A DNA stretch of 55,689 bases, filler included, from Jimgerdemannia flammicorona (Eukaryota): assembly GCA_003990765.1 (NCBI GenBank). It is 3 parts of 3 records of this genome, joined end to end, with 100 filler letters (N's around TTAATTAATTAA, not from the genome) between each part and the next. Parts side by side here need not be neighbours in the genome. Positions count along the whole stretch, not along the records: positions 1 to 18,500 come from RBNJ01002197.1; 2 more parts are not named here. The stretch is one strand, 5' to 3'. Under the pieces are notes generated by a model. That model made no database searches, had not been told where the DNA came from, and saw nothing but the letters and a program-made list of their open reading frames with translations. How positions within the stretch are numbered: the stretch's first letter is position 1; the number at the start of each line of letters is the position of its first letter. Position numbers and translations under genes: made by a program. Shown here piece by piece: positions 1-44,112 of this stretch.

Positions 1-1194
1 GGAATGGACATCACTACAGTAGAAGAAACTATACTGAAACCCCAGACAACCACCCTACTCGCAACTGGACTGGAGATGACCATCCCAAAGGATCATGTCG
101 GGATTCTCAAGACAAGAAGCAGCCTGGCTAGAAGCGAAATCACAATCGAAGGAGGAGTCATTGATTTAGACTCTACTGGAGAAATTCTACTCATTACTAG
201 GAACCACAATCCTACAATTTCATTCCCAGTCAAGAAGAAGGACTGATTGGCACAGATGTTGATCTTCCCAATCATACAGCCAAGGATCATAAAAGTCATG
301 AATCTGGAGGAAACAAAAAGAGGAAAGAAAGGATTCAGATCCACAGGAAGAGGAGTATTCGCCAGTACCAAGATCACTGAACTCGAGCATAAGAAGGAGG
401 AAAACATGAGCAAGCACAGTTACACCATTGGAGACGAATTTCCACTCAAGGAGGAACTTAAGAAAATACTCCACAAATTCGAAGATGTCCTTGCCACAGA
501 TTTCAAGGATATTAAGGGAAAGACCCCACACTACTATCATGAGGTAGATACTGGAGACACCAAACCAATTTACCAGAAGGCAAGATCTGTCCCACCAGCC
601 TACCAAGAATAGCTCAGAGAAGAAATCAAGCAGATGGAAGAAGCTGGCATCATCAAAGAAGCCAGCAGCCCCTGGTCTTCACCAGTTGTACTAGCCCCGA
701 AAAAAGGAAGCAAACCTGGAGAATTTGCCCCAAGGCTCTGTGTTGACTACAGAAAGCTCAATGTAGTTACCAAGAAGGATCGCCAACCACTGCCGCTCAT
801 CAGTAACATCCTTATAATACTGGGAGACAAAGCAGAGTACTACAGCACTTTGAACTTATACTCAGGATTTCACCAAATCGGACTCACAGAGATGGCAAGT
901 GAAAAGTCAGCCTTTATCACCCCAGACGGAACCTATATCTACCTACGAATGCTATTCAGAATGTGCAATACACCAGCAAGCTTTCAGCGAATGATGAACA
1001 AAATCTTCTGCTATGACATGGGAAGATGGATGATGGTCTATATTGATGATGTAATCATCTACAGCAAGACACCTGAGGAACATCTGCAGCACATACAGCA
1101 GATAATAGAGAGACTAAGACAATATGGCCTTTATATCAAACCCAAGAAGTACAAGTTTGCAGAAATCGAGATCTCCTATCTTGGCCATATTATC
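1..1194 (+). pseudogene. pol: Ty3/Gypsy element A pol remnant, 5' part: dUTPase followed directly by reverse transcriptase
   Basis: ORFs 4-246, 247-612 and 634-1242 are in one frame broken by single stops. dUTPase motifs KTRSSLA, EGGVIDLDSTGEI, AQ, RGKKGFRSTG; RT motifs SPWSSPVVL, RLCVDYRKLN, YIDDVII, SYLGHII. Cut at 1194 by an LTR insertion. Confidence 0.93.
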
Positions 1195-1288
1195 TGTAAG
1201 CACACAACCTCCAAGCCACTGAAATTACACATCACCCTCTGAACAAGCCACTGAAATCACACACTTTTTTTTTTTTTTTTTTTTTTTT

Positions 1289-1963
1289 ATAAAACGAGTA
1301 GATAGTAGAGGAATAGTTTAGAGCGAGATGTGATACTGTTACGGCAGATATGAAAGTTGGCAGTAAAAGGTCAAAACAGTAATCTTAAGTGAATTTTCAT
1401 AATGGAACGAAAGCAAGCAGAATAAAGTGTTTTCCGAAGCAAGGTGCAATAGATCTGCAACCCGCCCTCAGTATTGCAATATGCGGTGGTCTTTATTCAT
1501 TTTGAGAAACAAAGTTTGGATAAACAAAGACACGGATCTAACTCCAGAATTCCGGAATCAGATAGGTGCATAAGTACCCAGACCTTGCCCTGATCCAAAC
1601 AAGGGTCTGAATCGGGCTTCGTCGATCTACATACATGATGGGCCATTAAAAAACCTGATATAGTAACAATCAGGAAAAAGGTTCTGGTCACGTGATCTAA
1701 TGTTACACAATCAATAAACAATGCCAAAAATGGAACTAGACCAATGACACAGCATGTGTTGTCACATGATTGTCACTGATAGGTTTTAAAAACCTAAAAA
1801 TTGTTGGCACCTGAAGGCGCAGGCATCAGGCCTAGAGCCTCGCGACCGGAGCGGAGTAGAGCCTCGGCACCGGAGCGAGCAAAGCAAGTGGAGGTAGACA
1901 GGCATCACGGAGCGTAGGTACGCAGGCGTCAGGCCTAGAGCCTCGCGCTGGAGGTTGTCCGGC
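1289..1963 (-). repeat. 3' pseudo-LTR of Penelope-like copy 1
   Basis: Reverse complement matches 5702-6380 and 9590-10267. Confidence 0.9.
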
Positions 1964-2013
1964 GATTTTTCACATTTTTAAACATCGTACGGCACGTACA
2001 AGCAGTGCGGCCT

Positions 2014-4026
2014 TCAAGGAGGACTTAGAGCGAAGCTGGTGTTTGAGACAGCATTAAGAATGGTAAAACCATTCTTCTGGGTGATGATTGATCGTTGGGC
2101 GGTCGCAGGGAAACCAAAACAAAGCAAAGCGATACGTAGAGTCTTGTCGGGCTGTTGATGTAGCCATCGGGCCATGTCGTATTGGACAACAAGCAGCGGG
2201 GGAGAAAAAGCAGAGTGGGGGATAGGGGGGTGGGAAATAAGGGGAGGGGTGAGAAGTGAAGTTCGGACCTCAAGCCAATCAACCAAACTCAATTGAGCAG
2301 TTACAACATCAACAGGGTATCCTTTCCTGTGAACCAGGAATTCGGCCAAAGACCAACACTCATCAAGCCAATCATGGTGAGACGAGCAGAGTAGCGAAAG
2401 GCGGCGGGCTTCATTCACAATGCATAGATGGAGTATCTTCCTAGGATAATTGCTCAACCAGTTGACAAACTGAGTACTATGCGGGAATTTAGCAAAACGG
2501 CCAGTACAGAACGGTGCAACTCAGATTTCCAGGTCTAAGTAATGGCACGGTCCAGCGGACAAGACTTCCTATTTGATACGATAGTGTGGTGGGTACACAG
2601 CAGCAAAGATCAAGGCCAAGTCCATAATTGCGGGCATAAAGACAATAAGATCGTCGATATACCAGCGGAACTTTAGCCCGGCAGCAACGGCTCGGCTAAG
2701 CAGATGATCAGGTGCTTGCAAGGCATGCAATTCATGAGCAAAACCAACCAGATTGGCAAGATCCGGAGCACAATTGGTGCCCATAGCAATACCAGTCACA
2801 GAGCGGAAGGAGCCGATGGCAGATATAAACGTCGTATGAGTCATGACAATGCAGACGAGACCGAGAATGACGACAAGCAGCAGAGAGCCAGGGGGGAAGG
2901 CCACCATCGACAAAAAGGTGAGGCAGTCGATGCACTCATCTAATGTGATCCTAGTGTAGAAGGTGGCAAAATCTCCAGTAGCAACATAGTTGCAATCTGA
3001 CATGTCAAGGTAATCTGATCGAACCAATTGAAGCAGTTCTAATGTATCACGTAGAGGTGAATATCGCGAATAACCCATATTATGGTGCAGATGGGCTGAC
3101 CACAGATGGAGAAAGCGAGATAAGAAATGCGAAATCTCAGTCATGGGAGAGTTAAATGCACTAACAATAGGGTGCCATGCCATGCAAGCCCCTTTGTGTA
3201 CCTTGGGCAGAGCATGAAATATGGGTAGCTTTCAATTGTTGGGCTCCATGAGGTGTTCCCAAATCGGCATACAATTATGATCGCTGATACAGAACTCGAG
3301 TAGACCAAGCAGGTCTAGCCTCACTGATTCCTTAATGTTATCAATCGTAGAGAGATCATTCACGTACGCAGGATCGTGAAGGAGGGACCGAAGACCGTCG
3401 AGATACAGAGCGCATGGTAAGACGGCAAACTCCAGATTTTTGTCGGTAAGACAGATGGTAAAGTCATCATGAGTACGGACGCCTTTGAGAAGGCGGTGGA
3501 ACTTCTTCGGTATAAGCGCACCGGACACATTCGTCGTGGGTCGGACAGCTTGATTCAAGGTGGCACTCATATGAAGCATAATTTGCATATTTTCCATACA
3601 GTGTGGCGGTCGCCATTTAGATGGCACCCAGGCAGAGATCTCCGGGACGTCATCAGGATTACCCATAGAGGTCCAGAAGGTGGCAAGGTCAAGACGCCAT
3701 TGGAATGACGACAACGAAATCGGGTCGATGGTGCTGTTCATCGATGCCGACCCAGGGAGAACGAACTTAGGGCCAAAGTTCAGCATATACGTGAGCTCGG
3801 GGGTAAGCCAAGGCGGAGGTATATCGGTAACAAAGCCCTCCTTGGTAAACATCCAAAACCGAGGGACGAAAAACTGACTTAAGCGGGAACCGGGAAGAGA
3901 AGACACGAAGGCAAAATCCTCAATAGGTGTCAAGGCCGCTACCCTACGTGGAATGGGGACATCGGGGCCAAACCACACTGCCGGGAAGTCATATAAGACT
4001 TCCGGGCTGGGGACCTCTAGTTTTTT
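2014..4026 (-). pseudogene. Penelope-like reverse transcriptase ORF2, copy 1 (~670 codons, premature stops, no GIY-YIG domain)
   Basis: ORFs 3232-3978, 2569-3183 and 2014-2457 share one frame; motifs LPKVHK..WHPIVS, GDFATFYTRI, GIAMGTNCAPDLANL, WYIDDLIV, HYLDLEI, SNYPRK; ends at 2014 with no endonuclease motif. Confidence 0.9.
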
Positions 4027-5165
4027 AATGCTAGAGGGCAGGTATTGCCGGCATTATGCCAAACGACATGATGTTTAGCGGCAGTACACTTGTTGTACTG
4101 CAGCACAAACGCCCTGGCAGCGCTCTTAGATGAGCGGCTCGAAGTCGACGAGTGACTGGTCCCAGTAGAAACAGAAGAAACGGATGGGGAAGGAGAATTC
4201 TTACGTGCTCGCTTGACCCCTTTTACAGAACCCACTGTCACGGCAGGGGCTAGGGGGCAAGGACCCCAGTGGGCCTTCGTAGGCACACCAAGGCGTCCAG
4301 AACAGCTACGGCAGTTCGGCGCAACAGAGGCCAAGGTCACCTTCACCTCCTTCACCTTTCCCGCAGCCCCCGCAGGCATGGCAGTAGAGGGTAGGGGGGT
4401 GGGGACGCTCTTTTTCGGTCAGGCGGAACCAGCGGCAGTAGAAGCAAACTTGTGTTTGGCACCCGGAGTAATGATCTCGGGGCGCTTCCCAAGCTCCTCA
4501 ACCACAGCTTTGTGAGCGGCGGCAGAAATCCCATCTTGCAGGGAGGAGGATGCAGGGACTGTCGAGCAGACGGCGGCAGCAGTGGCTTTGGCAGCGGCAG
4601 CGGCGGCAAGATGGCGAGACTGATGCACGACAACGTCAAAACCACGGAACAGAAACAAGTTCGTCCTGACTCGGTCAGTGGCAGCGAGGGTAGTGATATT
4701 CTTGCTAACCCCTTGGGTGATATCAACAGATACACCAAAAAATTGATGGGCATCGAAAGAGCCACCCATGGCTTTGTCAATTTTAGCATGCTGGTCCTTA
4801 GCATGCTAGGCAGCGGCATCTTGATCAGACACGGCAGCCTCGATCGCGGCAGTGGCATGGCGCTTAGCTTCTGCCAAAGCAGTAGTAAGGGTGGCATCAT
4901 GCTGCTCCTCAGGTAGGAGGGTGATGGCAGCGGCAACCTTCTTGGAAGGAGTAAACTTCCAATCAGCAACCTGGGCCCATAGGAACTCGGCGCGGCGTTC
5001 TTTCGCGGCGGCGACCTCAAGGGCGGAGAGCACTCCGATGCAAGCAGCACAGAAGAAAACAGGGACCTCGGCAGATGCCGCAGTGACATAGGCTGCAAGG
5101 TTGTCGAACTCTGCCAAATCGGTGAAGGAAGCTTTGGGGACAGCAGCATCGCCATCTATATTCAT
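4017..5165 (-). pseudogene. Penelope-like ORF1, copy 1 (Ala-rich helical N-half, C-terminal Cys/His motifs)
   Basis: In-frame pieces 4806-5165, 4419-4769 and 4017-4379; near-identical to 6387-7547. Confidence 0.8.
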
Positions 5166-5183
5166 ATTATCTGTTATGTTGTG

Positions 5184-5702
5184 TATTATAAAATGAGTAG
5201 ATAGTAGAGGAATAGTTTAGAGCGAGATGTGATACTGTTATGGCGGATATGAAAGTTGGCAGTAAAAGGTCAAAACAGTAATCTTAAGTGAATTTTCACG
5301 ATGGAATGAAAGCAAGCGGAATAAAGTGTTTTCCGAAGCAAGGTGCAATAGATCTGCAACCTGCCCTCAGCACCGCAATATGCGGTGGTCTTTATTCATT
5401 TTAAGAAACAAAGTTCGGATAAACAAAGACATGGATCTAACCCCAGAATTCTGGAATCGGATAGGTGCATAAGTACCCGGACCTTGCCCCAATCCAAACA
5501 AGGGTCTGAATTGGGCTTCGTCGATCTACACATATGATGGGCCATTAAAAAACCCGATATAGTAACAATTGGGAAAAAGGTTCCAGTCACGTGATCTAAT
5601 GTTACACAATCAATAAACAATGCCAAAAACGGAACTAGACCAATGACACAGCATGTGTTGTCACATGATTGTCACTGATAGGTTTTAAAAACCTAAAAAT
5701 TG
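5184..5702 (-). repeat. 5' pseudo-LTR of copy 1, lacking the first ~170 bp
   Basis: Direct repeat of 1289-~1802; stops at the inversion junction AAAAATTG 5695-5702. Confidence 0.88.
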
Positions 5703-6380
5703 CCGGACAACCTCCGGCGCGAGGCTCTAGGCCTGACGCCTGCGTATCTATGCTCTATGATACCTGTCTACCTCTGCTCGCTTCGCTCACTCCGGTGCCG
5801 AGGCTCCACTCTGCTCCAGTCGTGAGGCTCTAGGCCTGATGCCTGCGCCTTCGGGTGCCGACGATTTTTAGGTTTTTAAAACCTATCAGTGACAATCATG
5901 TGATAACACATGCTGTGTCATTGGTCTAGTTCCGTTTTTGGCATTGTTTATTGATTGTGTAACATTAGATCACATGACCAGAACCTTTTTCCCGATTGTT
6001 ACTATATCGGGTTTTTTAATGGCTCATCATGTGTGTAGATCGATAAAGCCCAATTCAGACCCTTGTTTGGATCGGGGCAAGGTCCAGGTACTTATGCACC
6101 TATCCGATTCTGGAATTCTGGGGTTAGATCCATGTCTTTGTTTATCTGAACTTTGTTTCTCAAAATGAATAAAGACCACTGCATATTGTGGTACTGAGGG
6201 CGGGTTGCAGATCTATTGCACCTTGCTTCGGAAAACACTTTATTCCGCTTGCTTTCGTTCCATCATGAAAATTCACTTAAGATTACTGTTTTGACCTTTT
6301 ACCACTGACTTTCATATCTGCCGTAACAGTATCACATCTCGCTCTAAACTATTCCTCTACTATCTACTCGTTTTATAATA
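5702..6380 (+). repeat. 5' pseudo-LTR of Penelope-like copy 2
   Basis: Direct repeat of 9590-10267; ends at TTTTATAATA 6 bp before the ORF1 ATG; no TG..CA ends. Confidence 0.9.
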
Positions 6381-6386
6381 CACAAC

Positions 6387-7547
6387 ATGATAGATAATAT
6401 GAATGTAGATAGTGATGCTGCCATCCCCAAAGCTTCCTTCACCGATTTGGCAGAGTTCGACAACCTTGCAGCCTATGTCGCTGCGGCATCTGCCAAGGTC
6501 CCTGTTTTCTTCCGTGCTGCTTGCACTGGAGTGCTCTCCGCCCTTGAGGTCGCCACCATGAAAGAATGCCGCGCCAAGTTCCTATGGGCCCAGGTTGCTG
6601 ATTGGAAGTTTACTCCTTCCAAGAAGGTTGCCGCTGCCATCGCCCTCCTACCTGAGGAGCAGCATGATGCCGCCCTTACTACTGCTTCGGCAGAAGCTAA
6701 GCACCATGCCACTGCCGCGATCAAGGCTGCCGTGTCTGATCAAGATGCCGCCGCCCAGTATGCTAAGGACCAGCATGCTAAAATTGACAAAGCCATGGGT
6801 GGCTCTTCCGATGCCCATCAATTTTTTGATGTATCTGTTGATATCACTCAAGGGGTTAGCAAGAATATTGCTACCCTCGCTGCCACTGACCGAGCCAGGA
6901 TGAACTTGTTTCTGTTCTGTGGTTTTGACGTTGTCATGCGTCAGTCTCGCCGTCTTGCTGCCGCCACTGCTGCCAAAGCCGCTGCTGCCGCCGTCCGCCT
7001 GACAGTCCCTGCATCCTTCTCTCTGCAAGATGGGATTTCTGCCACTGCCCACAAAGCTGTGGTTGAGGAGCTTGGGAAGCACCCCGAGATCGTTACTCCA
7101 GGTGCCAAACACACATTTGCTTCTACTACCACTGGTTCTGCCTGACCGAAAAAGAGCGTCCCCACCCCCCTACCCTCTACCGCCGCGCCTGCGGGGGCTG
7201 CGGGAAAGGTGAAGGAGGTGAAGGTGACCTTGGCCTCTGTTGCGCCGAACTGCCGTAGCTGTTCTGGATGCCTTGGTGTGCCTACGAAGGCCCACTGGGG
7301 TCCTTGCCCCCTAGCCCCTGCTGTGATAGTGGGTTCTGTAAAAGGGGTCAAGCGAGCACATAAGGATTCTCCTTCCCCGTCCATTTCTTCTGTTTCTACC
7401 GGGACCAGCCGCTCGTTGACTTCAAGCCGCTTGTCTAAGAGCGCCACCAGGGCGTTTGTGCCGCAGTGCAACAAGTATACTGCTGCTAAACATCATGTCG
7501 TTTGGCATAATGCTGGCGATACCTGCCCTCTAGCGTCAAAAAACTAG
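6387..7547 (+). pseudogene. Penelope-like ORF1, copy 2 (386 codons with one internal TGA at 7143-7145)
   Basis: ORFs 6387-7145 and 7209-7547 are in frame; C-x2-C-x10-H-x3-C (CRSC..HWGPC) and a second C-x2-C-x9-H-x5-C motif (consensus of both copies). Confidence 0.8.
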
Positions 7548-7584
7548 AGGTCCCCAGCCCGGAAGTCTTATATGACTTCCCGGC
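7538..7584 (+). promoter_or_regulatory. Candidate -1 programmed ribosomal frameshift signal between ORF1 and RT
   Basis: A_AAA_AAC at 7538-7544 in ORF1 frame immediately before TAG; -1 frame is open into RT; hairpin GCCcGGAAGTC/GACTTCCcGGC at 7557-7584; identical in copy 1 (heptamer 4020-4026). Confidence 0.72.
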
Positions 7585-9539
7585 AGTGTGGTTTGGCCCC
7601 GATGTCCCCATTCCACGTGGGGTAGCGGCCTCGACACCTATTGAGGATTTTGCCTTCGTGTCTTCTCTTCCTGGTTCCCGCTTAAGTCAGTTTTTCGTCC
7701 CTTGGTTTCGGATGTTTACCGAGGAGGGCTTTGTTACCGATATACCTCCGCCTTGGCTTACCCCCGAGCTCACGTATATGCTGAACTTTGGCCCTAAGTT
7801 CATTCTCCCCGGGTCAGCATCGATGAACAGTACCATCGACCCGATTTCGTTGTCGTCGTTCCAACGGCGTCTCGACCTTGCCACCTTCTGGACCTCTATG
7901 GGTAATCCTGACGATGTCCCAGAGATCTCCGCCTGGGTGCCATCTAAATGGCGACTGCCGCACTGTATAGAAAATATGCAAATTATGCTCCATATGAGTG
8001 CCGCCTTGAATCAAGCTGTCCGACCCATGATGAATGTGTCCGGCACGCTTGTACCGAAGAAGTTTCGCCACCTTCTCAAAGGCATCCATACTCATGATAA
8101 CTTTACCGTCTGTCTTACCAACAAAAATCTGGGGTTCACCGTCTTATCGCGCGCTCTGTATCTCGATGGTCTTCGGTCCCTCTTTCACGATCCTGCATAT
8201 GTGAATGATCCCTCTACGATTGATAACGTTAAGGAATCAGTGAGGCTAGACCTGCTTGGTCTACTCGAGTTCTGCATTGGCGATCATAATTGTATGCTGA
8301 TTTGGGAACACCTCATGGAGCCCAATGATTGTAAGCTACCCATGTTTCACGCTCTGCCCAAGGTACACAAAGGGGCTCGCGTGGCATGGCGCCCTATCGT
8401 TGGTGCGTTTAACTCTCCCACAACCAAGATTTCGCGTTTCCTATCTTGCTTTCTCCGTCTGTGGTCGGCCCATCTGCACCATAATGTGGGTTATTCATGA
8501 TATTCACCTCTATGTGATATGTTAGAACTGCTTCAATTGGTTCGATCGGATTACCTTGACGTGTCAGATTGCAACTACATTGCTACTGGCCTTCTACACC
8601 AGGATCACATTAGATGAGTACATCAACTGCCTCACCTTTTTGTCAATGGTGGTCTTCCCCCCTGGCTCTCTGCCACTTGTCGCCATTCTCAGCCTCATCT
8701 GCATTGTTATGACTTATATGACATTTACATCTGCCATCGGCTCCTTCCGCTCTGTGACTGGTATTGCTATAGGCACCAATTATACTCCAGATCTTGCCAA
8801 TCTGGTTGGTTTTGCTCATGAATTGTGCGCCTTGCAAATACCTGATCATCTGCTTAGCCAAGCTGTCGCTGCCTGGCTAAAGTTCCGCTGGTATATCGAC
8901 GATCTTATTGTCTTTACGCCTGCGATTATGGACTTAGCCTCGATCTTTGCTGCTATGTACCCACCACACCATCGTATCGAATGGGAAGTCTTGTCTGCCG
9001 GACCGTGCCATTACTTAGACCTGGAAATCCGAGTTGCACCATTCTGCACTGGCCGTTTTGCTAAATTCCTGCATAGTACTCAGTTTGTCGACTGGTTGAG
9101 CAATCATCCTAGGAAGACGCTCCGTCTATGCATTGTGAACGAAGCCCGCTGCCTTTCGCTACTCTGCTCATCTTGCCGTGATTGGCTTGATGAGTGTCGG
9201 TCTTTGGCCGAATTCCTGGTTCACAGGAAAGGATACCCTGTTGATGTTGTAACCGCTCAATTGAGTTTGGTTGATTGGCTTGAGGTCCGAACTTCACTTC
9301 TCACCCCTCCCCTTATTTCCCACCCCCCTATCCCCCACTCCGCTTTTCCTCCCCTGCTGCTTGTCATCCAATACGACATGGCCTGATGGTTACATCAATA
9401 GCCCGACAAGACTCTACGTACCGCTTTGCTTCATTTTGGTTTCTCTGCGACTGCCCGATGACCAATCATCGCCCAGAAGAACGGTTTTACTGTTCTTAAT
9501 GCTGTCTCAAACATCAGCTTCACTCTAAGTCCTCCTTGA
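7544..9539 (+). pseudogene. Penelope-like reverse transcriptase ORF2, copy 2
   Basis: LPMFHALPKVHKG..WRPIVG, GIAIGTNYTPDLANL, WYIDDLIV, HYLDLEI, SNHPRK; 11-bp deletion near 8590 removes motif A Asp and shifts frame; premature stops. Confidence 0.9.
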
Positions 9540-9589
9540 AGGCCGCACTGCTTGTACGTACTGTGTGATGTTTAAAAACGCAAAAAATT

Positions 9590-10267
9590 GCTGGACAACC
9601 TCCGGCGTGAGGCACTAGGCCTGACGCCTGCGTACCTATGCTCCGTGATGCCTGTCTACCTCCGCTCGCTTCGCTCGCTCTGGTGCCGAGGCTCTACTCC
9701 ACTCTGGTCACGAGACTCTAGGCCTGATGCCTGCACCTTCGGGTGCCGACGATTTTTAGGTTTTTAAAACCTATCAGTGACAATCACATGACAATATGTG
9801 CTGTGTCATTGGTCTAGTTCCATTTTTGGCATTGTTTATTGATTGTGTAACATTAGATCACGTGACCGGAACCTTTTTCCCAATTGTTACTATATCGGGT
9901 TTTTAATGGCTCATTATGTGTGTAGATCGACGAAGCCCGATTCAGACCCTTGTTTGGATCGGGGCAAGGTCTGGGTACTTATGCACCTATCCGATTCTGG
10001 AATTCTGGGGTTAGATCCGTGTCTTTGTTTATCTGAACTTTGTTTCTCAAAATGAATAAAGACTACCGCATATTGTGGTGCTGAGGGCGGGTTGCAGATC
10101 TATTGCACCTTGCTTCGGAAAACACTTTATTCTGCTTGCTTTCATTCCGTTATGAAAATTCACTTAAGATTACTGTTTTGATCTTTTACCACCGACTTTC
10201 ATATCCGCCGTAACAGTATCACATCTCGCTCTAAACTATTCCTCTACTATTTACTCGTTTTATAATA
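9590..10267 (+). repeat. 3' pseudo-LTR of Penelope-like copy 2
   Basis: Direct repeat of 5702-6380, followed by A-rich tail. Confidence 0.9.
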
Positions 10268-10280
10268 AAAATAAAATAAA

Positions 10281-10331
<51 letters not shown>

Positions 10332-10539
10332 AAATCTAGAAATCACCTGCTTGATCATGAAGCTGAGTCAAACCGAAGTCACAGCATACAAAGCTGAGTC
10401 AATATGAGGTCACAGAATACAAGATTTACACAAACAGAATCTTACCAATTAGGACCAAATGCATATATACCGAGTACCGAGATACGTTGAATCAGAGAAC
10501 CAAAACAAACAAACAACCACAACTTCTAAACACACAAAC

Positions 10540-11637
10540 ATGATCACCAAGATCTACAACTGTATCCATGCTGACATTTGGAATGCCATTGTCAACCGAG
10601 CCACACCCCCTCTGCCCCTCATGAATATCCATAGCCTGGCACCCCTCTACTTCATGGAAGCCTGATGGAATGCCCTGAACATGCTTAGTGAGGCCCACTG
10701 AATCAGACAAATCTCAAGCTACTACCAGATCAGCCGCCTCCTGGAAGACATGATCGAACACTACTACAATACAGACATTACCCAGATATCTCAATACCAG
10801 AAGCTCATCATCTGCAAACATTGAGAACTCTTCTATAAGTATAGCACCATTATTTCCCACCTCCGAGTTACTACCAGTGAAATGGTTGCTACTCTGTCCT
10901 ATGGCCAAATCAATGACATGATACAAGAACTCAACCAGAAGTACCTTGAGTATATCAAAACCACAGATAGAACCTTCCCACACCCCAATAATCATATCCT
11001 ATAAATGCCTCAAGTTGGATACACCATGAAGGACATCTATGATATAATCCACTTCGATGAAGACGAAGCAGAAGACAATGATCTCTCTGATGCCAACATG
11101 ACCTCTAGTCAAGGATCTCTGCCAACCCTGATCACTCTGCCAACCTTGCCAATGAACTTACAACAGTTCATAACTACATACAAGACTTATTGGGACAATG
11201 ACCACTGGCACGAATACCAACCTGCATTCACCCCCAATTACTTCAACTACAACGAAGAGACCAGAGAACACAACCTGTACCTTCAGACAACTCTTGAGAT
11301 CAAACCAACCACTCCACCACCCGAGTACGAGTGACATGAACCACAGCTGCCAGTATACTATAACCCCACAACTCACAGTGCCGTAACCTATAGAAGGTAC
11401 ACAGACAGCAAATCCAATGAAAGTAAAGACAATACACTCATCCTTCACCCACCAATACCTTATCTAGCATACAAGACAGACAATGCTATCCTGTGGGATA
11501 GAGACGAAGTTCCAATGTACTATTACCTCAGCAAACAAAGAGAAGTAATCTGCAAACCACTCTTCCTAGATGACTACTTCATCAGAGATGATGCAATCGA
11601 TGGTGATGTCATTGAGGACTACCCAGACAGCACCTAA
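10540..11637 (+). pseudogene. LTR-internal ORF of family B, decayed copy (366 codons incl. stop, unknown function)
   Basis: ATG 10540 to TAA 11637, same 1098-bp length and frame as 30003-31100; only point-mutation stops. Confidence 0.75.
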
Positions 11638-12318
11638 ACCCATAAATAGCCTAGCAGTCATAGTATAGTTAGATTAGCCTTGTATGACATGACTGTGAAC
11701 TAACTCAGCAGTCAGATGATCTCTTGATATATCAGATCACACTTGTACTATGTGACTATATTCCGACTCAGCAAAGTACTTAGTGCTACATCCATATTTA
11801 GCATAGTCCAGATAGCCCCTTACTAGTATAAATACCCCCTCCCCCAGACCTCAGAATCTCAGACTCAAACACACAAGAACATTCCTGAATACTTCTCCAC
11901 AATATCCCTTCATACAAATACTCCTAGTATAGCAATATCATGAATAGCAAATAAACCTATTCCATAACCCACAAACTACTCTTAAGTAAATCCACCCCCT
12001 GTTAGGTCCCACTCCTAACCCCATCACGAAATTTCCTAATTGGGTATTGTCTGCAGTGATACACCAATTCAACTAAGCTGGTCTTAGTTTCTTGAACTTC
12101 CTGAAATACAGAAAATCCTGAACATCTAGAACTAGTCTGAAAAAGGACTTTGGTTGAGATATCAACCCAATCTTGAAATCAATAAGCGTAGAGGACATAC
12201 TCCATATGAAATTGATCTTGACTATAAGAAAATGGTCTTCCAGAATATCCTGAACCTCCAGAAAACCCTTCCAGAACTATGTAACGATTACCCTAAAAAG
12301 CAACCCTCTTACATTATC

Positions 12319-12808: not shown

Positions 12809-14837
12809 ATGTCAATCAGAAAGTGAGCTGATGCATGTCCTAGGTTAGGTGGACCTGGGGCCTTCGACTGGCAGTATGTTGGGAGAGGGTATGGACTGGG
12901 AATGAGGTCTTTCGGTGGATCGAGTGGACTGGACAGCTCGGGGGGTAGAGGAGGCACTGGTGGGGGGGCTGGAGGGTAGCAGGGAGGGAGCTTTGTGGAT
13001 ACACTTAAGGCTGGGGGTTGGCCGAGGGGTGCCCGCAATAGACAGGCAGGAGGAAAGGGGAAGCAGAAGGTTGGCGATGCTGGGGGAGCTGGGTCTTCAC
13101 TGGTGGGAGGTGGAGGGAGTAGAGTAGTGGCTGGGGGTAGTGGCAGGACTGCTGATGGTGGTGTGATGGTGAATCTGGAAAAAAAAAGAGATGTGATGGC
13201 TGATGGCCAGGGGGGACAGGGGCTCCCAATGTGGAAGGGGGATCTGGCTGATGGTGTAATGGGACTGGCAGTGGCCCCATTGCTCAAGAAGTCAATCTTG
13301 GAGTTCACGGCTATCTTGTGCTTCCGGGGCTTAGTGGTGATAGTGAGGATGGTCCTGGGGCTTATCTCGAGGCAGGTGGCTGGTGCGGTCTCAGTGAAGT
13401 TCTTGAAGGGCATGGAGGGGGTCGAGGTGGGCTTTGAGGAGGCAGGCCTACTGGATGAGACCATGAAGACAGGAGTGGTGGTTGGGGAGGTGGTGGTCCC
13501 CATGGTAAGGTGCTTGAGGTGGGACCCCAGGGTGGTACAGCTTCTGGTGAGGGGGGTGCTCATGGTGACTAAGGAGGAGACTAGGAGGAGGGTGGAGGAG
13601 GTGATAGTAGAGTATGGCGATGTAGTGGACATTGGATTTCAGTTGTAGGAGGGGACAACTATCAGGATGGGCGACATTGATGTCAGGATTCGGTTGGCAG
13701 GGAAGGAGGCCATCGGGAAGACAAGTGACTGGCCCTTGGTGCTGATGTGGGGGGCTGTCATCTGCAAGGTGTCGAGGGTGAAGGGGAGTGAAGAAGAGGA
13801 GGAGGACTTGTTGGAGGCACTGGAGGAGTTGGGTAGTGCTGTGGAGAGGAGGGCGAAGGCCTGGAAACTATATGAGAAATTGACGCATCTGGAGGTTGTC
13901 GGAGAGAGGCATATCTGTATAGATAAGAAGCAGTGGGAGTGGATCCAGGGACGCAAGAGGCAGAAGGAGCTATTGTATGATAGGTGGGGAGAAGGAGAAG
14001 TTGGGTGAGGCTGAGGAGTCTGGAGGCACTGAGGCCAGTGTCTGGGCTGGTAAAGGAGGAGAGGAGGTCAAAGCGAAGGAGGCGGGAGCTGGGAAGGGGC
14101 TGGATAAGGACCCATTTGCTGATGGTACCTTTGAAGTGTGGGAGCCGGAGTTGGATGCCACCCCCCCCCCACTTATCAGGAGGGGCCCAGTGGGGAAGAG
14201 AGGGAGGATGGAGGATACACGGATACAGGGGGCCCAGCAGGTACGCTTTGGGGTCCCTGATGTGGCTCAAGGGGGTCAGGTGGTGGCAGTTGGCGAGGAT
14301 GAGCTGGTGGATGTCCCTGAGGAGGAGTGGGATGAGGCTGCTAGTGTAGGAGCTGACACCATGATGTTGGATGCAGGGCGACCGGGGACTCCAGGAGGGA
14401 AGGAGGTGGGGAACTTGTTGTGGGTATGCAAGGTGATGGATAACCTTGCAGCAGAAGCATTGGGAGAGGTTGACCTGCGGGCAATGCCTGAGGAGCATTG
14501 GGCAAGGATCCTGCATGGGGATGGAATGGTAGAGGCACTGAAGGTGGAGATTCTGGTGATTTTACTGGAGGAGGAGGGATATGAGGTTGACGAGGTGAGG
14601 AAGGTAGAGCTGGGGGTGGTCACTGCTGAGCAGGCAGACTACTGTTGGGCAGAGCGTCAGGGTCTGCAGCTCTGGCAGGAGGCCTGTCTGGAGTATCGCG
14701 AGGATTTTGAGGAGCATGAGGATGGGGCAATGGTAGAACTTCTGAGAGAGTTAGAGGCATGGGAAGCTGGGGAGAGGGAACTGGCTGCTGAACTTAACTT
14801 GGACTTGGTGCTGGAGAGGCAGGATACCAACTTATAG
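12809..14837 (+). pseudogene. LINE ORF1 (Gly-rich N-terminus, acidic C-terminus), stops and one frameshift
   Basis: ATG 12809 in frame with 12995-13648 and 13667-14008, shifting to 13977-14837; aligns with 22361-24388. Confidence 0.8.
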
Positions 14838-14869
14838 AGGATGGGCTCTGATATATATCATTATTCTTT

Positions 14870-17800
14870 ATAAACAGTACAATCAACTTTTTTTCCTTAA
14901 ATGTGAATGGGCTAAGGGGATCTGGGTGGCGTAGGAACATTTTTACTTAGCTCAAGGGATTAGAGGCTGATCTCTTTTTATTGCAGGATGTTTGATGTGA
15001 GAATGAGGATGATCAGGCAGAGTGGACTAGAGAGTGGGGGGGGGCTGCTGCTTGGTTTGGGAAGATAGCAATTCTGGTGATGAAGGGCAGAGGAGACTTG
15101 GGGGGAATCAGGAGCTGGGGCGATCGCTTGGTCTGGGGAGATTGGCATCGGCCAGGGTGGGAATCAGTGAAGGTGGGCTCTTGCTACTGCCCTGCAGTTA
15201 GGGGTGAGAGGATTGCATGGATTAGGAGATTGCTGGAGGAGGGTATTCTCTTAGAGGAAGGGGTCGATGTTCTCAGTGATGGTTTGGGACCAGCGTCTGG
15301 ACAGAACTGATAGAGGGAGGAGTGCTGGGGGTAGAAGTGGAGGTCTGGATGCATGGGAGGAGGTGGAGATATTGAGCTTCTTGGGGGATATGAGCAGAAT
15401 GAGATAGGGTGACACTAGGGTTTACATGCATTGGGTGAATGGTCTGGGCACAAGGATTGACTGGATTCTGATGGCGGAGTGCTGGGGTTCAGATGTTTGG
15501 AAGGCATTGGAAGTAGAGTAGTGCCCATGGTCTGATCACTGGGGACTGTTGGGGTAGGGGCAGTTTGGGGGGAGTGAAGATGGACCCAGACATTGGTGCC
15601 TTAACTCCTCCCTGCTGGCTGAGAAGGGGCTGTGGGAGCTGTGGGTGGAGGACATTCAGGTAAAAGTTTTTATCTGAAAGCATGAGGGTTTGCCTGTGGC
15701 TGTCCGCTGGATGAGGTTGAAAGAGGCTGCAAGAGTTTATTGGGGAGAGGCTGGTAGAGAGGCTGGGAGGCAGAGAAGGAGGCACACGAGGTGTGCTTCC
15801 AGCAGGCTGAGGAGACTACAAATAGATTGGGTGGATTTGCTCACTATTGTAGGGGTGGAGGATTGGAGGATAGAAAGGGCGAAATTGGAGATAGTGGAAC
15901 TACAACAGGTGCTAAGAGAAAAGGAGGAGACCTATATGTGGGGCATAGCTGCTAGGCTGCGGTGGCAGGGGCTTGAGGAGGGTGAGCAGCCTACTAGGTA
16001 CTTATTGAGGCTTCTCAAAGCTAGAAGAGTGCATCATCGGTGGGATGGGGTCCTGGATGCTGATGGGGTCATGGTTCATGGCACACAACAAATCCTGGGG
16101 GTCTTAAAGGAGAGATGGCAGGGTTTGTGGAGTGAGGGAGAAGGGGGTGCAGATGAGGTAGAGATTGTAAATACACTTGATGAGTGGGGACCACCGCAGG
16201 TTACTGGACTGAGGGATTTGATCTTACCGGTGCAGAGGGAGGAGATCCAGAGTGTCCTGGCAGTAACTAAGCTTGGGATAGTGCCAGGGGAGGATGGATT
16301 GCCTTGGGACTTCTGGAAGAAGATAGTAAATGTCCCCAGAGTATTGGGCAAGATGGCCGATCTTTGTGACCATATCCTTCGGAGTGGTGAGTGGGTTGGA
16401 GAGCAGGATCTGGAGCTGGTGGTCTTACTGTACAAAGACAAGGGAAGGAGGGAAGACTGGAAGAACTGGAGGCTGATCATGCTTCTGGATATGGACAGGA
16501 AGATGGTGACTAAGGTGATTGTCGCAAGGCTGCAGAAGGTTGCCCAACAGGTACTGGGGGAAGAGTAGAGGGGCTTTGTTGGGGGCAGGCTAATAAGAGA
16601 TGGGACTGCATGGGTTCATGGTGTCATTGAAGGGGCCTGGGCCTGTGGACTGGATGGAAGGTTGGTCTTTCTGGACCAGGAGAAGGCCTATGACTGTGTA
16701 TGGCAGGTGTGGCTGGGAAAGGTATTGGACCGAATTGGTGTTCCCCCAACATTTAGGGCCTCTATGTTGAGTCTGCTGGAAAGTAGTTGGGTAGCTCTGA
16801 CGTGTAATGGTCACCATGGGAGGGCATTTCTCTTGGGAAGAGGAGTACCTCAGGGGGACCCTCTATCCCCAATTCTCTATGCCCTGTCACTGGAGCCATT
16901 GATAGATAGGATTCGCCAGAAGGTAGCAGGGCTCTCTATATATGGTATAGTGTAGAAGGTGGGGGCCTTTACTGATGATATGGTGGTTGGACTTGGGTCT
17001 GTGGCGGATGTAGTGGCACTTCAGGAGACTGTGGAATAGTATGAGGCTCACTCAGGGGCGAAACTCAACTGGCATAAGTGTGAGACAATGGTGCTAGGGA
17101 ATGGGCTAGTGGGTGGGGACGTCATTGGAACAATTGTCCCTACTGGTGAGGTGGTGTGGTATCCTGGCATCTTCCTCTCTGTATATGGTTCTGTCTTGCC
17201 ACGAGTGTGGTGGGAGGGCAGGGTGAATAGTTGGGGGGAGGCCCTTCGAGGTTGGAGAGGCCACCATATCTCTCTAGCAGGGTAGGTATCGATCCTGAAT
17301 ATATATTGGTTCCCAAAGCTGTGGTATGTGGCATATCACCTCGACTTCCTAGTATGGGTGGTGAAGAAGCTGATGAAGGTGGCTAGGGATTGGATTTGGG
17401 CGGGGAGGAGGTCTCAGATCAGTTGGAATACCCTTGCGAGACTGGTAGTCAAGGGAGGTCTTGGCCTGGTGGATTTCCCTAAGAGGCTGTACTGCTTGAG
17501 AGTCTGGTGGTTGAAGAGAGCTGTGGAATTGCAGGGCGGAGGTTGGGTGCCTCTGCTGCAGAAGGTATGGGAGATGCAAACATCCCCCTGAGGGTCCTCT
17601 GGAAATCTGCTCTCTTTGGTGGGGCTGAATGGAGTTCGGAGGCTGCAGTTTAAGGGCTTTTGGTGGGGAGTGGCCAATAGAGCACACTGAATTGACCTGC
17701 GATGACAAGGTAATGAGGGGGAGGCGGCGTGGGGGCCTAATATGTGGTGTTGGGATATACTGCTCCTGGGGGGTACTCCACTGGCTGCGTTCGATATTGG

Positions 17801-18490
17801 GGAGGGAGTGGAGTATCAGCAGGGGCTTGGCCAGGACCTTTGGCCAAGTAGCTGGCAGGCAGTTGGAATTGGAGAGGAGTGGGACTGGGCAGGCATCTGG
17901 TCTTGGAGTGCTGAGGTATGGCAGTGGCTTCCTCCCAAGTTCTGGGTGGTATGGTGGCGAATGTTGTGGAGGAATATCATGCTGAATTTCTGCTCAGGGC
18001 ATTTAGTAGAGGGTGGACAATTTGACTGCGAGGAGTGTTACAATGTTGGGCAGACTGGGGGTCATGTACAGACACCGGAACATTGGCTGGGAGAGGTTGA
18101 GGTCTTGGGGGAATTTTGGGCTGAGATTGGGGATAGACTGGGTGTGGGGCGTCGGCAGATGGGGGAGGGAGGTCACTGGGAGGACTTAAGATCTTGGCTT
18201 GTAGATAGGGTGGGAGATAGTTGGCTCACTGTAGGATGGGTGTTAGCAGTATAGGTAGGACTGGCGGGCCACTGGCTTTTTGTATTTAAGGAGGGGTAGT
18301 GGTTGGGGCTGCATGAGAAGGTGTTAAGATGGGAGGAGCTGGTGGGAGATCTACTTACCAGATAGTGGGTGGGTTGGGGTCCTCAGGGAGGACAACGTCG
18401 CGGTTTGATGATGAGGATCTGTGAGCAGAGTAGTGGGAGGGTGGGGATAGTGTTCGACAAAGTGGTCTTTCACAGAGAAGGGGTAGGGGG
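14870..18490 (+). pseudogene. LINE ORF2: AP endonuclease, reverse transcriptase, C-terminal Cys motif
   Basis: FSLNVNGLR, LLQDV, GTRIDWI, WSDH (APE); PGEDGLPWDFW, NWRLIMLLDMDRK, FLDQEKAYD, GVPQGDPLSP, AFTDD (RT); CEEC..TPEH. Start codon decayed to ATA. Confidence 0.92.
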
Positions 18491-18500
18491 GGGGGGCCCC

Positions 18501-18600
18501 NNNNNNNNNNNNNNNNNNNNNNNNNNNNNNNNNNNNNNNNNNNNTTAATTAATTAANNNNNNNNNNNNNNNNNNNNNNNNNNNNNNNNNNNNNNNNNNNN
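18501..18600. other. Artificial contig linker (44 N, TTAATTAATTAA, 44 N)
   Basis: Exactly 100 bp, six-frame stop spacer, identical to 37099-37198. Confidence 0.97.
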
Positions 18601-18670
18601 TTTTTTTTATAGTCCCTTGGACTCCATCTTTATTACCAATCTATGAATAAGTATACAATAACACCACTCT

Positions 18671-21600
18671 CTACCCTATCCCCATCAAGGGACTCCTCTC
18701 CACCTCTTCATGTGTAAAGACCACCCTCTCACTAACAACTCCAACTCTCCCACCACTCTGACCACAGATTTTCACCACCAAGTGGCACCTCCAACCCCCC
18801 TGCAGCCCCCAACCAAGCCACCAGCCCATCAAGGTATCCTCTATAAGGCACTGCCACCATGATAACCAGCTCCCCAAGCTCTGTCGCCTCTCCTCCTTAA
18901 ATACAAATAGCCAGTGACTGGCCAGCCCAACCCAAATAGCCAACATCCAGCCAAGAGTAATCCACTTCTCCCCTACCCCTCCTATCAATCGATCCCTCAG
19001 ATCCTCCCACCTCCCCCATACATCATCACCCCTACGCCTTACCCCCAAGCGGTCCCCAATAGCCTGCCAAAAGTCACCCAATACCTCATACTCCTCAAGC
19101 CAATGTTCTGGTGTCTGTACAAATTTCCCTTCCTGCCCTACATTATGGCACTCCTCACAGTCAAAGCAGCCCCCTATAACAAGGTGTCCTGAGCAGAAGT
19201 TAAGCATCACATTCCTCCTCAGCACATGCCACCAGACTACCCAGTACTTCGGCGGCATCCAATTTTTCACTGTGGCACTCCAGGTCCAAACCCCCTGCCA
19301 GTCCCACTCCTCACCAATTCTAACTCCTTGCCAACCACTAGGCCACAGATCCTGGCCTGGTCCCCTTTGGCATTCGATTCCATCACCAATGTCGAACTCC
19401 AGTAAAGGTATGCCCCCCAGAAGAATACCATCCCATCTCCACATTGCTGGGCCCCAAGTCCTCTCCCCCTCATCCCCTTGCCAGCAAATACCAATGTGGT
19501 GTGCCCCCTCAGCTATCCCCCACCAGAAGTCTTTATATTGCAGTTGCCCAGTGTTCTGAAGCCCAACTAATAAAAGAAGATCACCAGTCAAGCCTCTTGG
19601 TAATGTCTGCCTCTCCCATATCTTCTGCAGTAGGGGAATCCAGCCCCCTCCATGCAACTCCACTGCCCTCCTAAGCCACCATGCCCTCAAGCAGTGTAGT
19701 CTTTTGGGGAAGTCCACCAGCCCAAGACCACCTCTCACCACCAGTAGGAACAGCATCTCCCAACCAATCTGACTCTGTCTGCCAGCCCAAATCCATCCCT
19801 TGGCCACCTTCACCAATCACTTCACCACCCAGGCTGGGAAGTCCAGATGATAAGCCAAATACCACAGTTTTGGCAGCCAGTATACATTCAAAATTGAGAT
19901 CCTTCCTGCCAGAGAGAAGTGTCTTCCCCCCCAACCCTGCAGGTCCTCCTCCCAAATTCCAATCCTATGCTCCCACCACTGCCTGGGCAGAACAGACCCA
20001 TAGACTGACAAATATATGCCCAAGTACTGCACTGCCTCTCTGGTGGGGACAATTGCTCTAATAACCTCTCCACCCACCAGTCCATTGCCTAGCACCATTG
20101 TTTCGCACTTGTGCCAATTCAGCTTTGCCCCAGAGTTCTCCTCATACCACTCCACTGTCTTCTTGAACTCCTCGACATCTGCAGTAACTCCCAAACCAAC
20201 CACCATGTCATCTGCAAAGGCTCCAACTTTCCAGCCAATTCCATAGATAGAGAGCCCCACAATCCTCCGCTGAATTCAGTCCATTAGAGGCTCCAAGGAA
20301 AGTGCATACAAAATGGGGGACAGTGGGTCCCCCTGGGGCACTCCCCTACCCAGAGGGAATGTAACCCCTCTATGCCCATTGTACATGAGCGCAGCCCTAC
20401 TCCTTTCCAGTAGGCTGACCATCGCCACCCGAAATGGGACCAGAACCCCAATTCTATCCAACACTTTCGCCAGCCAGACTCGCCGCACCCGGTCATAAGC
20501 CTTCTCCTGGTCCAAGAAGACAAGACGCCTATCTAGTCCACAGACTTGCACACTCTCAACAACTCCATGTACCCAGGCCGTGCCATCTCGAATAAGCCAA
20601 CCCCCTATGAAGCCCCTCTACTCAACACCCACAATTTGTTGGGCCACCTTCTGCAGCCTTGTGACCACCACCTTAGTCACCAACTTTCTGTCCATATCTA
20701 GCAACATTATTGGCTGCCAGTTCCTCCAATCCTCTTGCCTTCTCTTGTTCTTATAGAGCAGCATCACCAGCCCAAGATCCTGCTCCCCCACCTATTTCCC
20801 TGACTGCAATATGGAGTCACACAGTGCCGTCAACTCTCCCAATTTGCCCGGGACTCCAACCATTCACTTCCAGAAGTCCCAGGGGAGGCCATCCTCCCCA
20901 GACACTGTACCTGAGGCTGTTGCGGCAAGAACCTGGTGGATCTCGTCCTCCTTTACAGGCATCACCAGATCACCTAATCCTTCAGCTCATAGAGGGTGCC
21001 AATCTTCTAATGTTTGTTCAATGGCCGTGGCATCCACCCCACCCTCCTCCTCACTCCACAATCCACTCCATCATGTCTTCAGTGTTCCAAGGATATCCTG
21101 TATACCATGCACTAGTCTATCATCTGAGTCAAGTATCCCTTCCCACCGCTGCTGTACCCTTCTCACTCGAAGCGTCCTCATAAGAAACTTAGAAGGCCTC
21201 TCCCCTTCCTCCAGCCCCTGCCAATGAAGCCACACCACCAGGCCTTGCACCCTTGACTCCTCCTCTTCCTGCAGCACCTGTTGTAGTTCTCCAACCTCCA
21301 TCTTCACCCTTGTTATTCTTCAATCCTCTTCTCCCTCTACTACTGCCAGATTTGCCCACTCCTCCAGAAGCCTAGCCAATCTAGCAGAAGCCCAATGCAC
21401 TCTCTGCCTTCACTGCCTCCCAGCCACTCTGCCAGCCTCGCTCCAATACATCCTGGCCATCTCTTTCATCCTCCTCCACCGAACCCCAATTATGGCCCCT
21501 TCCTGCCACCAATTCACCACCTTCATCTGAATGTCATTTGCCCACTCCTCCCACTGGGACTCATCATTCAACAAGGAGGAATTCAGGTACCAATGTCCAG

Positions 21601-22327
21601 GCCCATCACCACTTCCCCCAAAACACCTCTGTCCCAAAAGGCCCCAGTGGTCTGATCATGGACACCATTCTACCTCTAGCACCTTCCAAATGTCGTGGCC
21701 CCAGCAGTCGGCTGTTAGAATCCAGTCAATCCTTGTCCCCAGACCTCCAGCCCAATGCGTATATACCCTCCTGTCCCCCCAGTATTCCCTACCAGCATCC
21801 ACCAGCGCTCCTAGCCTTTCGACCTCCTCCCACATCGCCAGCCCCCCACTCCTGCTCTCAGCACCCCATCCTCCATCAGTTCTATCCAGCTGTACATTCC
21901 GAACCATATTGAAATTGCCTCCAAGTATATCCAACCCAGCTTCAGCAAGGATCCCACTCTCTAGGAGCCCTTTTACCCAATCCACACACTCCCCCCGTAT
22001 AGCAGGGCAGTAACAGGAGCCAACTGTAACTGGCTCCCAACCTGCATGAATCCACTCACCCCAGACCAGTCTCTCCCCCCAGCTCCTCACATTCTGTATC
22101 TCCCCTCTACCTTTCTGAACCAGAATTCTGACCTTACTATTCCAAATCGCCGTGCCACCCCATTCCTTAGTCCATTCCATCCTATCAGAATCATCCTCAC
22201 ACCTGACATCCTGCAAGAGGAAGAGATTGGCCTCCAATTCCTTCAACCAAGTAAAAATGTTCCTGCATCTAACTGCACCCCTTAGCCCATTCATGTTCAA
22301 AGAAAAAAGGTTAGTTGTACTGTTCAT
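18671..22327 (-). pseudogene. LINE ORF2 (APE + RT), 1219 codons in one frame with premature stops
   Basis: FSLNMNGLR, LLQDVR, GGNFN, TRIDWI; FLDQEKAYDRV, GVPQGDPLSP, AFADD, YLGI; CEEC..TPEH. Confidence 0.93.
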
Positions 22328-22360
22328 AATGAAATATAGTTTGTTTGCAATCAATCCCTA

Positions 22361-37098: not shown

Positions 37099-37198
37099 NN
37101 NNNNNNNNNNNNNNNNNNNNNNNNNNNNNNNNNNNNNNNNNNTTAATTAATTAANNNNNNNNNNNNNNNNNNNNNNNNNNNNNNNNNNNNNNNNNNNN
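37099..37198. other. Artificial contig linker
   Basis: Same 44N-TTAATTAATTAA-44N structure. Confidence 0.97.
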
Positions 37199-41215: not shown

Positions 41216-41531
41216 TCGGGAGGTGTGGTGTGGGAGTAGGGTAGTGTGGTGTGGGAGGAGGTGTGGTGTGGGAGAAGGGGCTGTGGGAGGAGGTGTGGTG
41301 CGGGAGAAGGTGCCGTGGGAGTAGAAGTAAGGAGTGGGTGTGGTAAGTAATGGGGTGGCACGGATGGATGACCTAACTTCTCAAGTTGGCTAGCAGACTC
41401 CCAGCCGCCAACGCTTGATTGGCTAGATGCCGCAACAATCCCGTTGGCCACCTGCGCCATCTAGTCATCTATAATTGACTACTCCGAGATCGAACTCTAA
41501 ATACCCCCACCATTTGGCGTCATCTTGTTGA

Positions 41532-41570
41532 ACCATATGCCACCATATGCCACCATATGCCACCATATGG
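41532..41570 (+). repeat. 10-bp tandem repeat (ACCATATGCC) x4
   Basis: Read directly from sequence. Confidence 0.9.
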
Positions 41571-43885: not shown

Positions 43886-44053
43886 TGTGGAGATCGAAGA
43901 TGTTGGCAGTGGAATATGTTGTGTTGGTACGGCAAGTGGGTAATGGGCAACGGGGTAACAGAGCGGTGGGTGTGGTATTTAATTATTGAATTGAAAAGAT
44001 GAGCACGTAACGTTTCAATTTGGCTTAGCACCCTTAGCAGCCGCAAACCTTTA

Positions 44054-44112
44054 ATTGGCTCTAGATGCCGCAGCATTCTCATTGGCTCTAGAAGCCGGAA
44101 CAGTCCCATTGG
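44054..44112 (-). promoter_or_regulatory. Three CCAAT boxes at 27-bp spacing upstream of paralogue 2
   Basis: ATTGG at 44054, 44081 and 44108; TATA-like TTAAATA near 43980. Confidence 0.55.

Follow-up and report, generated by a model that had tools for sequence, protein, structure and literature searches.

Head-to-head palindromes at a fixed hairpin as the insertion form of an endonuclease-less Penelope-like family in Jimgerdemannia flammicorona

Background

Inverted 5' copies are typical of Penelope-like elements (PLEs) that bear an endonuclease (EN), an arrangement stated to be missing from the EN-deficient PLEs of fungi and protists (PMC3846280). Endonuclease cleavage has been suggested as the probable cause of the inverted structures, and the genome-wide insertion of EN-less families was left open (PMC8557442). 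Coprina is found at telomeres (PMC13159263) and hammerheads occur in fungal PLEs (PMC4209133); with an EN-bearing PLE, extension of both strands of the target has been seen in vitro (PMC11167929). For L1, insertions feature a TTTT/AA nick site and a short target site duplication (TSD) (PMC13526784), and two complementary DNAs (cDNAs) join 5'-to-5', tails outward, as rare events (bioRxiv 2024.08.27.596794; PMC13526784; bioRxiv 2024.12.14.628481). Here we analysed a 55,689-nucleotide stretch of the Jimgerdemannia flammicorona genome (the window), in which a pair of EN-less PLEs lies head to head inside a solo long terminal repeat (LTR).

We found that this insert is typical of its family, an autonomous Penelope-like lineage that lacks an endonuclease and regularly integrates as a head-to-head palindrome. 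Like Athena and Coprina (PMC8557442, PMC13159263), the family has a Penelope-type reverse transcriptase (RT) without endonuclease and a need for ready-made 3'-OH ends; Coprina-1_Alen also has two open reading frames (ORFs) and direct repeats. Unlike them, it is dispersed in chromosome interiors inside other repeats, as head-to-head pairs, with poly(A) tails instead of telomeric repeats and no hammerhead found. With the EN-bearing Penelope/Poseidon, Neptune and Naiad (PMC3846280, PMC8557442) it has in common pseudo-LTRs, partial tandems and an inverted copy with a short junction overlap. It differs from these in having no GIY-YIG domain, in an inverted copy that is usually full length with one fixed junction, in being polyadenylated at both ends, and in showing no 8-10-bp TSD. 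L1 bridges and twin priming likewise give two inverted elements joined 5'-5', with outer poly(A)s and with deletions, duplications or distant joins; however, they are rare and aberrant, need the endonuclease of ORF2p and vary in their junctions, whereas here the palindrome is the regular product, made at a built-in site and with no endonuclease. PLE-X of Chara and Selaginella (PMC8557442) is also EN-less and away from telomeres, by a route left open. It differs as a member of the Chlamys clade with a CxC motif and hammerheads, either targeted to ribosomal DNA or genome-wide, and the available text gives no head-to-head rule for it.

Since this family is inverted and has no endonuclease, the suggestion that endonuclease shapes such structures (PMC8557442) cannot hold here. 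Our literature searches found no account of two-tailed head-to-head EN-less PLEs; subscription papers (the Terminon paper included) and supplements lay outside their scope and may hold one.

Head-to-head joining at a fixed site

The window insert consists of an antisense arm (1289-5702, 4.4 kb), AAAAATTG at 5695-5702, a sense arm to 10267 (4.6 kb) and an A-rich tail at 10268-10330. Together with the T24 at the left end, these are the parts of the 9-kb inverted pair with outward tails that a preliminary description had placed in the LTR. Positions are those of the window, and they also serve as element positions; the sense and antisense arms are called A and B. The features of the insert and its host are as follows.

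1190-1194, plus strand: solo-LTR TSD, left copy (TTATC), within a Gypsy RT gene that has RVT_1 at 613-1239
1195-1264, plus strand: 5' part of the solo LTR, which belongs to the two-repeat subtype and has its native second repeat at 1247-1264
1265-1288, minus strand: poly(A) tail of the left arm (A24; T24 on the given strand), following TTTTAT(A)
1289-1983, minus strand: 3' pseudo-LTR, left arm
2014-4053, minus strand: ORF2, left arm, Penelope-like RT of 679 codons with three in-frame stops and without endonuclease
4017-5177, minus strand: ORF1, left arm, with an Ala-rich helical part and a basic tail that bears Cys/His motifs; it is decayed, and its limits were transferred from those of the right arm
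5184-5702, minus strand: 5' pseudo-LTR, left (B) arm, truncated at site B
5684-5706, no strand: inversion junction, where site A and site B cross over in a class 2 box, AAAAAT(C/T)G, of the inverted repeat that belongs to the element
5684-6380, plus strand: 5' pseudo-LTR, right (A) arm, starting at site A and retaining the ~155-nt spacer and its own site B
6387-7547, plus strand: ORF1, right arm; ~385 amino acids long in a copy that is open, but interrupted in the window by a stop at 7143
7538-7544, plus strand: A_AAA_AAC heptamer directly before the ORF1 stop, with ORF2 in the -1 frame; putative function
7511-9539, plus strand: ORF2, right arm, Penelope-like RT interrupted by stops and by the loss of 11 bp near 8590, ending where GIY-YIG starts in EN-bearing relatives
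9570-10267, plus strand: 3' pseudo-LTR, right arm, with a 200-nt hairpin whose closing stem is formed by site A (9570-9592) and site B (9746-9770)
10268-10330, plus strand: right-arm tail, (AAAAT)3 then A48, after TTTTATAATA
10331-12313, plus strand: 3' part of the solo LTR, which has lost 8-10 bp of its sequence between 1264 and 10331
12314-12318, plus strand: right TSD copy of the LTR, where the Gypsy RT/RNase H gene picks up again

The same arrangement recurs throughout the family. An RT search gave 738 candidates, of which we scored 150, on 116 contigs; among 34 neighbouring RT pairs, 32 were head-to-head, two tandem and none tail-to-tail. Moreover, we compared 53 centres, 31 found via pseudo-LTR matches (partly picked for opposed matches) and 22 picked by RT spacing alone. 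In 50 of them, site A was joined to the reverse complement of site B; two others join within ~15 nt, and the last retains the B side only.

Sites A and B form a ~22-bp imperfect inverted repeat of the element itself. Since one unit contains 83 perfect 8-mer inverted pairs, microhomology alone does not choose A x B. The 8 bp at 5695-5702, previously described as microhomology, are indeed present, but as one box of this inverted repeat. Site A, spacer and site B fold as a long hairpin (z -4.5 and -3.6 for two non-window copies of the region), and its A/T boxes are nearly invariant across 16 aligned copies. The crossover falls in the TTTAAAAA box in 38 centres and in the AAAAATCG box in 12, the window included. 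We conclude that the whole family inserts by head-to-head fusion, which is programmed at a fixed hairpin rather than being a chance patch.

Eleven 5' breaks were of another type than A x B. Ten adjoin other repeats and were read as later insertions. The remaining one, in C35 (L053:5694-5719), is an extra unit whose end, at element position 9597, falls a little short of site A and adjoins the poly(A) of the following copy. It fits an RNA 5' end near site A and resembles a template jump by a cDNA that stopped short of A. In C2487 (L049:4379-4430), site B in the 5' pseudo-LTR of the A arm holds the middle of site A. This perfected quasi-palindrome, seen once, shows that the hairpin also forms within one strand.

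Age and kinship of the arms

The arms of the window insert are ~92.5% alike: 329 of 4,402 aligned columns differ, 325 of them by transitions, 242 in CpG context. Nearly all the differences are C>T/G>A, a point that the preliminary description had proposed to test. Inside each arm, the 5' and 3' pseudo-LTRs diverge at a rate similar to that between arms (~7.5%), so all parts of the insert are of the same age and were not made by the assembler. All four pseudo-LTRs also carry variants private to this insertion.

For the family, we asked which copy was closest to each arm by transversions. From 31 insertions, three were dropped for too little overlap. The two arms were nearest kin in 25 of the 28 scored, and the other three were ties on short overlaps; arms of different age or subfamily, the outcome that would have spoken against a joint origin, were thus not seen. 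Because the arms are nearest kin, sequential insertion, recombination between insertions and one RNA per arm in each generation are all excluded. CpG decays common to both arms were modestly above independence in 11 of 11 insertions (e.g. 60 vs 40). We did not use this excess as evidence, as rates that vary by site, an aged parent and conversion would each account for it.

These data bear on two further accounts of the palindrome. The first takes it for an artefact or an accident, namely an assembly fold-back, the sequential insertion of two copies or later ectopic recombination. The assembly is fragmented (231 Mb in 35,354 contigs), which leaves some room for it. Against it, the ~7.5% between the arms is nearly all of the deamination type and equals the difference between pseudo-LTRs within an arm, the private variants are shared by four pseudo-LTRs, and the same junction recurs 50 times. 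We consider it hardly credible, and rejected assembly fold-back and sequential insertion on arm divergence, sister-arm kinship and pseudo-LTR ages.

The second is that the junction is inherited, the palindrome being copied whole or from one RNA per arm with an overlap across the centre. The nearly invariant junction site would suit such copying. However, crossover class does not track the tree (9 changes on the transversion tree of the first 31 insertions vs 8.68 for shuffled labels), so the class is not inherited. Moreover, pairing is within insertions and the A arms and B arms are not separate lineages, and a centre-spanning RNA cannot supply arm B's own poly(A) tail. An inherited junction is therefore very improbable.

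The element and its reverse transcriptase

A single element unit is 3,887 bp long and consists of ORF1, ORF2 and a 700-bp region that forms the pseudo-LTRs. These are direct repeats present in each arm, with 0-2 units per arm, and had been missed in the preliminary description. At L042, L061, L119 and L120, the end of a long interspersed nuclear element (LINE) adjoins a pseudo-LTR within 15 bp (element positions 9966-9980), a possible insertion hot spot.

ORF1 (~385 amino acids) is open in C2487 and ORF2 (679 codons) in C6158. The heptamer A_AAA_AAC before the ORF1 stop is kept in 52 of 54 copies and followed by a short stem (window 7538-7600), with ORF2 overlapping in the -1 frame. It fits what we take to be the slippery-site pattern for -1 frameshifting, and a programmed -1 frameshift probably joins ORF1 and ORF2.

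ORF2 encodes a Penelope-type RT with N-terminal GPKF/DKN motifs, core and thumb. Its relatives number 398 at E<=0.001, including the GIY-YIG-bearing RTs P0008 and P0025, which align over core and thumb, and ORF2 stops at the point where the GIY-YIG domain starts in two EN-bearing relatives. A Pfam scan of an open ORF1 and an open ORF2 gave no match, and a local EN profile picked out 14 of 131 relatives, not the protein of this family. EN-bearing PLEs (Penelope/Poseidon, Neptune, Nematis, Naiad and Chlamys) have a GIY-YIG endonuclease at the N- or C-terminus. The Penelope-like, endonuclease-free nature that had been proposed for the RT thus holds. In a tree of 130 relatives, ORF2 clusters (support 0.98) with five proteins without detected EN (P0003, P0161, P0002, P0005 and P0006). 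Two of these nearest relatives are named as proteins of Racocetra fulgida and Gigaspora margarita, arbuscular mycorrhizal fungi, a grouping that points to a fungal host.

Transversions common to both arms fall at third codon positions at 59 of 75 sites in ORF2 and 65 of 121 in ORF1, whereas only 28 of 71 arm-to-arm transversions in ORF2 do so. This third-position bias of the lineage, absent between arms, indicates that the lineage is selected and the RT autonomous.

The likeness to Athena and Coprina noted in the preliminary description stands for the missing endonuclease; the telomere association and the hammerhead were not found. Telomeric TTAGGG arrays occur at contig ends (first 100 of 883 matches listed), and none of the 17 family-bearing contigs numbered up to C2090 is among the matches listed. 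(TTAGGG)2 and reverse-complement telomeric repeats were absent from the 59 fetched loci and the window, in a fragmented assembly where unassembled telomeric copies are possible. For hammerheads, there was no Rfam match beyond a chance one and no recurring CTGANGA...GAAA core across copies, which are decayed, so variants could be missed. The element would work like an end-capturing member of Athena or Coprina, but its membership of these groups was not established.

Other searches gave little. The RT fragment had no scoring match among longer proteins, a metagenome scan for related loci returned 38 pattern matches with none confirmed, and ORF1 gave nothing usable in a PDB sequence search and an Atlas search (best 0.82, unnamed).

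Target sites and tails

The host of the insert is a solo LTR (1195-12313) with a 5-bp TSD, TTATC, which itself interrupts a Gypsy RT gene. This LTR family has a one-repeat subtype (e.g. 29746-29797) and a two-repeat subtype at its 5' end (window 1195-1264). The latter gave 1,398 pattern matches in the genome, and a reversed-pattern control gave none. The 18 nt at 1247-1264 had been described as filler copied from 1215-1232. Only 16 of the 18 bases match, and the stretch bears the diagnostic base of the native second LTR repeat. The LTR had also been said to resume with nothing lost; compared with 14 two-repeat loci, the left and right junctions lie 10 bp apart, or 8 if two A's of the tail are target. 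The apparent overlap, or 21-nt duplication, at the junction arose because the comparison was with the one-repeat subtype at 29746. The window target site is a small deletion, with no filler and no TSD.

Both flanks were available for 19 insertions, and the target outcome was resolved in 10 of them. A TSD of 6-40 bp was found in 0 of the 19, and in 4 of 342 mismatched-pair controls, in a test without positive control; clean TSDs in most copies, the pattern of an endonuclease, were thus not seen. Long direct duplications flank six insertions (0.3-3 kb): 457 bp in C35, ~315 in C436, ~710 in C756, and ~2.4-3 kb in C4055, C1023 and C5772, those of C1023 and C5772 being partly cut by contig ends. 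The long duplicates differ mainly by transitions; where a comparison was made, their rate was between a half and two thirds of that of the arms. Deletions were found at two sites, the window (8-10 bp) and C2627 (~170 bp, from one paralogue), and two insertions (C446, C7071) join unrelated repeats mid-sequence. Insertion ends show 0-4 bases of A/T microhomology. Besides, two junctions hold self-inverted flank pieces of 22 and 90 nt, and one end has an abortive cDNA start. At the target sites examined, an L1-type TTTT/AA nick site with a short TSD was not found. The target sites suggest repaired DNA breaks.

One reading of such sites is mobilisation in trans, in which a LINE or other endonuclease nicks the target and leaves only the filling to the Penelope RT. 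In its favour, APE-domain LINEs are abundant, there are 34 GIY-YIG matches in the genome, and microhomology of 1-4 T occurs at some ends, one of them TTT/A. However, short TSDs are missing from all 19 insertions, target ends such as CAC/GAC in the window are not L1-type, and 0.3-3-kb duplications and unrelated flanks are unusual for one nicking enzyme. Moreover, the listed family contigs have no GIY-YIG match, and around the 10 GIY-YIG loci checked (L134-L143) no Penelope RT lies within ~1.5 kb. We regard this reading as quite improbable. Several of the GIY-YIG matches sit in repeated arrays, for example four in C509, ~4 kb apart.

A closer competitor is the fold-back of a single cDNA: one DNA end would prime one cDNA, whose 3' end would fold onto its own site B and self-prime the second strand, the poly(A) end of the new strand would be captured by the second DNA end, and replication would open the hairpin. 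For the inverted junctions of Penelope, self-priming has been proposed (PMC3846280). A single strand can form a stable hairpin closed by the A:B stem, sister arms hold common private variants as exact copies would, and site B is converted in C2487; sister arms and a fixed site are explained equally well by fold-back and by two primings. However, fold-back predicts that B is copied from A, yet the poly(A) sites differ between arms in 4 of the 19 two-flank insertions, in two of which the B arm holds bases absent from the A arm, and the tails in 19 of 19. The B arm is also longer than the A arm in C5137, C7071, C6473 and C720, a point weakened by later pseudo-LTR recombination, which gives the same. 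None of the 19 runs over into the A-side flank, as no inverted copy of the opposite flank was found, and the hand-over of the new strand to the second end is an extra, unexplained step. Fold-back thus seems to us rather unlikely, if still a serious candidate.

Proposed mechanism

We favour, with a probability of roughly 60%, a reading in which two free 3' ends each prime reverse transcription on RNA of one source, and the two cDNAs anneal through the built-in repeat. The RNA would start near site A in the 5' pseudo-LTR and be polyadenylated at the pseudo-LTR end. An RT particle would capture two host-made 3'-OH ends, from a double-strand break, widely staggered nicks or broken-fork ends. Each DNA end would prime its own cDNA after pairing over 0-4 bases with the poly(A) or RNA end, and both cDNAs would be templated by the same RNA or by sibling RNAs from one source. 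One cDNA would then anneal through its 3' end (complement of A) to the complement of B in the other, the 170-nt flap would be trimmed and both strands filled in. The relative position of the two ends would decide whether a site ends up with a small deletion, as in the window, with 0.3-3 kb duplicated, or with unrelated sequences joined. Two primings are supported by the sister arms, the unlike tails and poly(A) sites, and the break-like targets, and the joining of two cDNA intermediates has been shown for L1 (PMC13526784; bioRxiv 2024.08.27.596794). The preliminary idea of a break patched by two primed cDNAs is compatible with the family data; its signature of templated filler and nothing lost was wrong, and the fusion is programmed rather than a chance event.

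Several points weigh against two primings. The RNA ends and all steps are deduced from sequence. Unequal arms can also be obtained by later pseudo-LTR recombination, and TAAAA repeats in the tails can arise after insertion, so that neither proves two primings. Site B of C2487 was converted to A sequence, and such later correction could also yield class 2 junctions. Only 10 of 19 target sites were resolved, the C2627 deletion rests on one paralogue, and the TSD test had no positive control. In a human L1 reporter, efficient cDNA-cDNA recombination needed at least 25 bp and was suppressed by mismatches (PMC13526784), whereas A x B has ~22 bp with mismatches. Finally, the 3' ends could be host breaks or the nicks of another element.

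The family shows a full head-to-head structure without endonuclease, at a fixed hairpin and with targets that resemble break repair. The joining, or second-strand, step of PLE transposition becomes directly testable, with two mutable sites and open copies of ORF1 and ORF2. On the favoured reading, a telomerase-related RT would act at internal DNA ends and leave structural variants, which suggests how elements without a cutter spread in chromosome interiors. A bolder and only tentative extension is that the family is a mobile end-joining system: its sole interior route would be to cap two free ends by telomerase-like priming on poly(A) and fuse them via a selected hairpin at the RNA 5' end, every insertion would be a repair event, and the inverted architecture of Penelope would come from RT and RNA, not from endonuclease. 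If true, each insertion can fix kilobase duplications, deletions or translocations.

Other features of the window

The window joins three contigs of similar length through N-TTAATTAATTAA-N linkers at 18501-18600 and 37099-37198, and the insert lies entirely within contig C2197. An inverted repeat of 71-76% identity (13142-24062) was rejected as a second palindrome, being two LINE copies on different contigs across a linker.

On the minus strand, 39277-46457 holds three related stretches (40352-41380, 42896-43978 and 45699-46457), each near a short inverted repeat. Two have Cys-pair motifs, which we take to resemble fungal zinc clusters, and one a Ser-Pro repeat; this is a local gene or transposon family with no Pfam match. 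At 50858-51172, a 15-bp coding-like repeat occurs 18 times.

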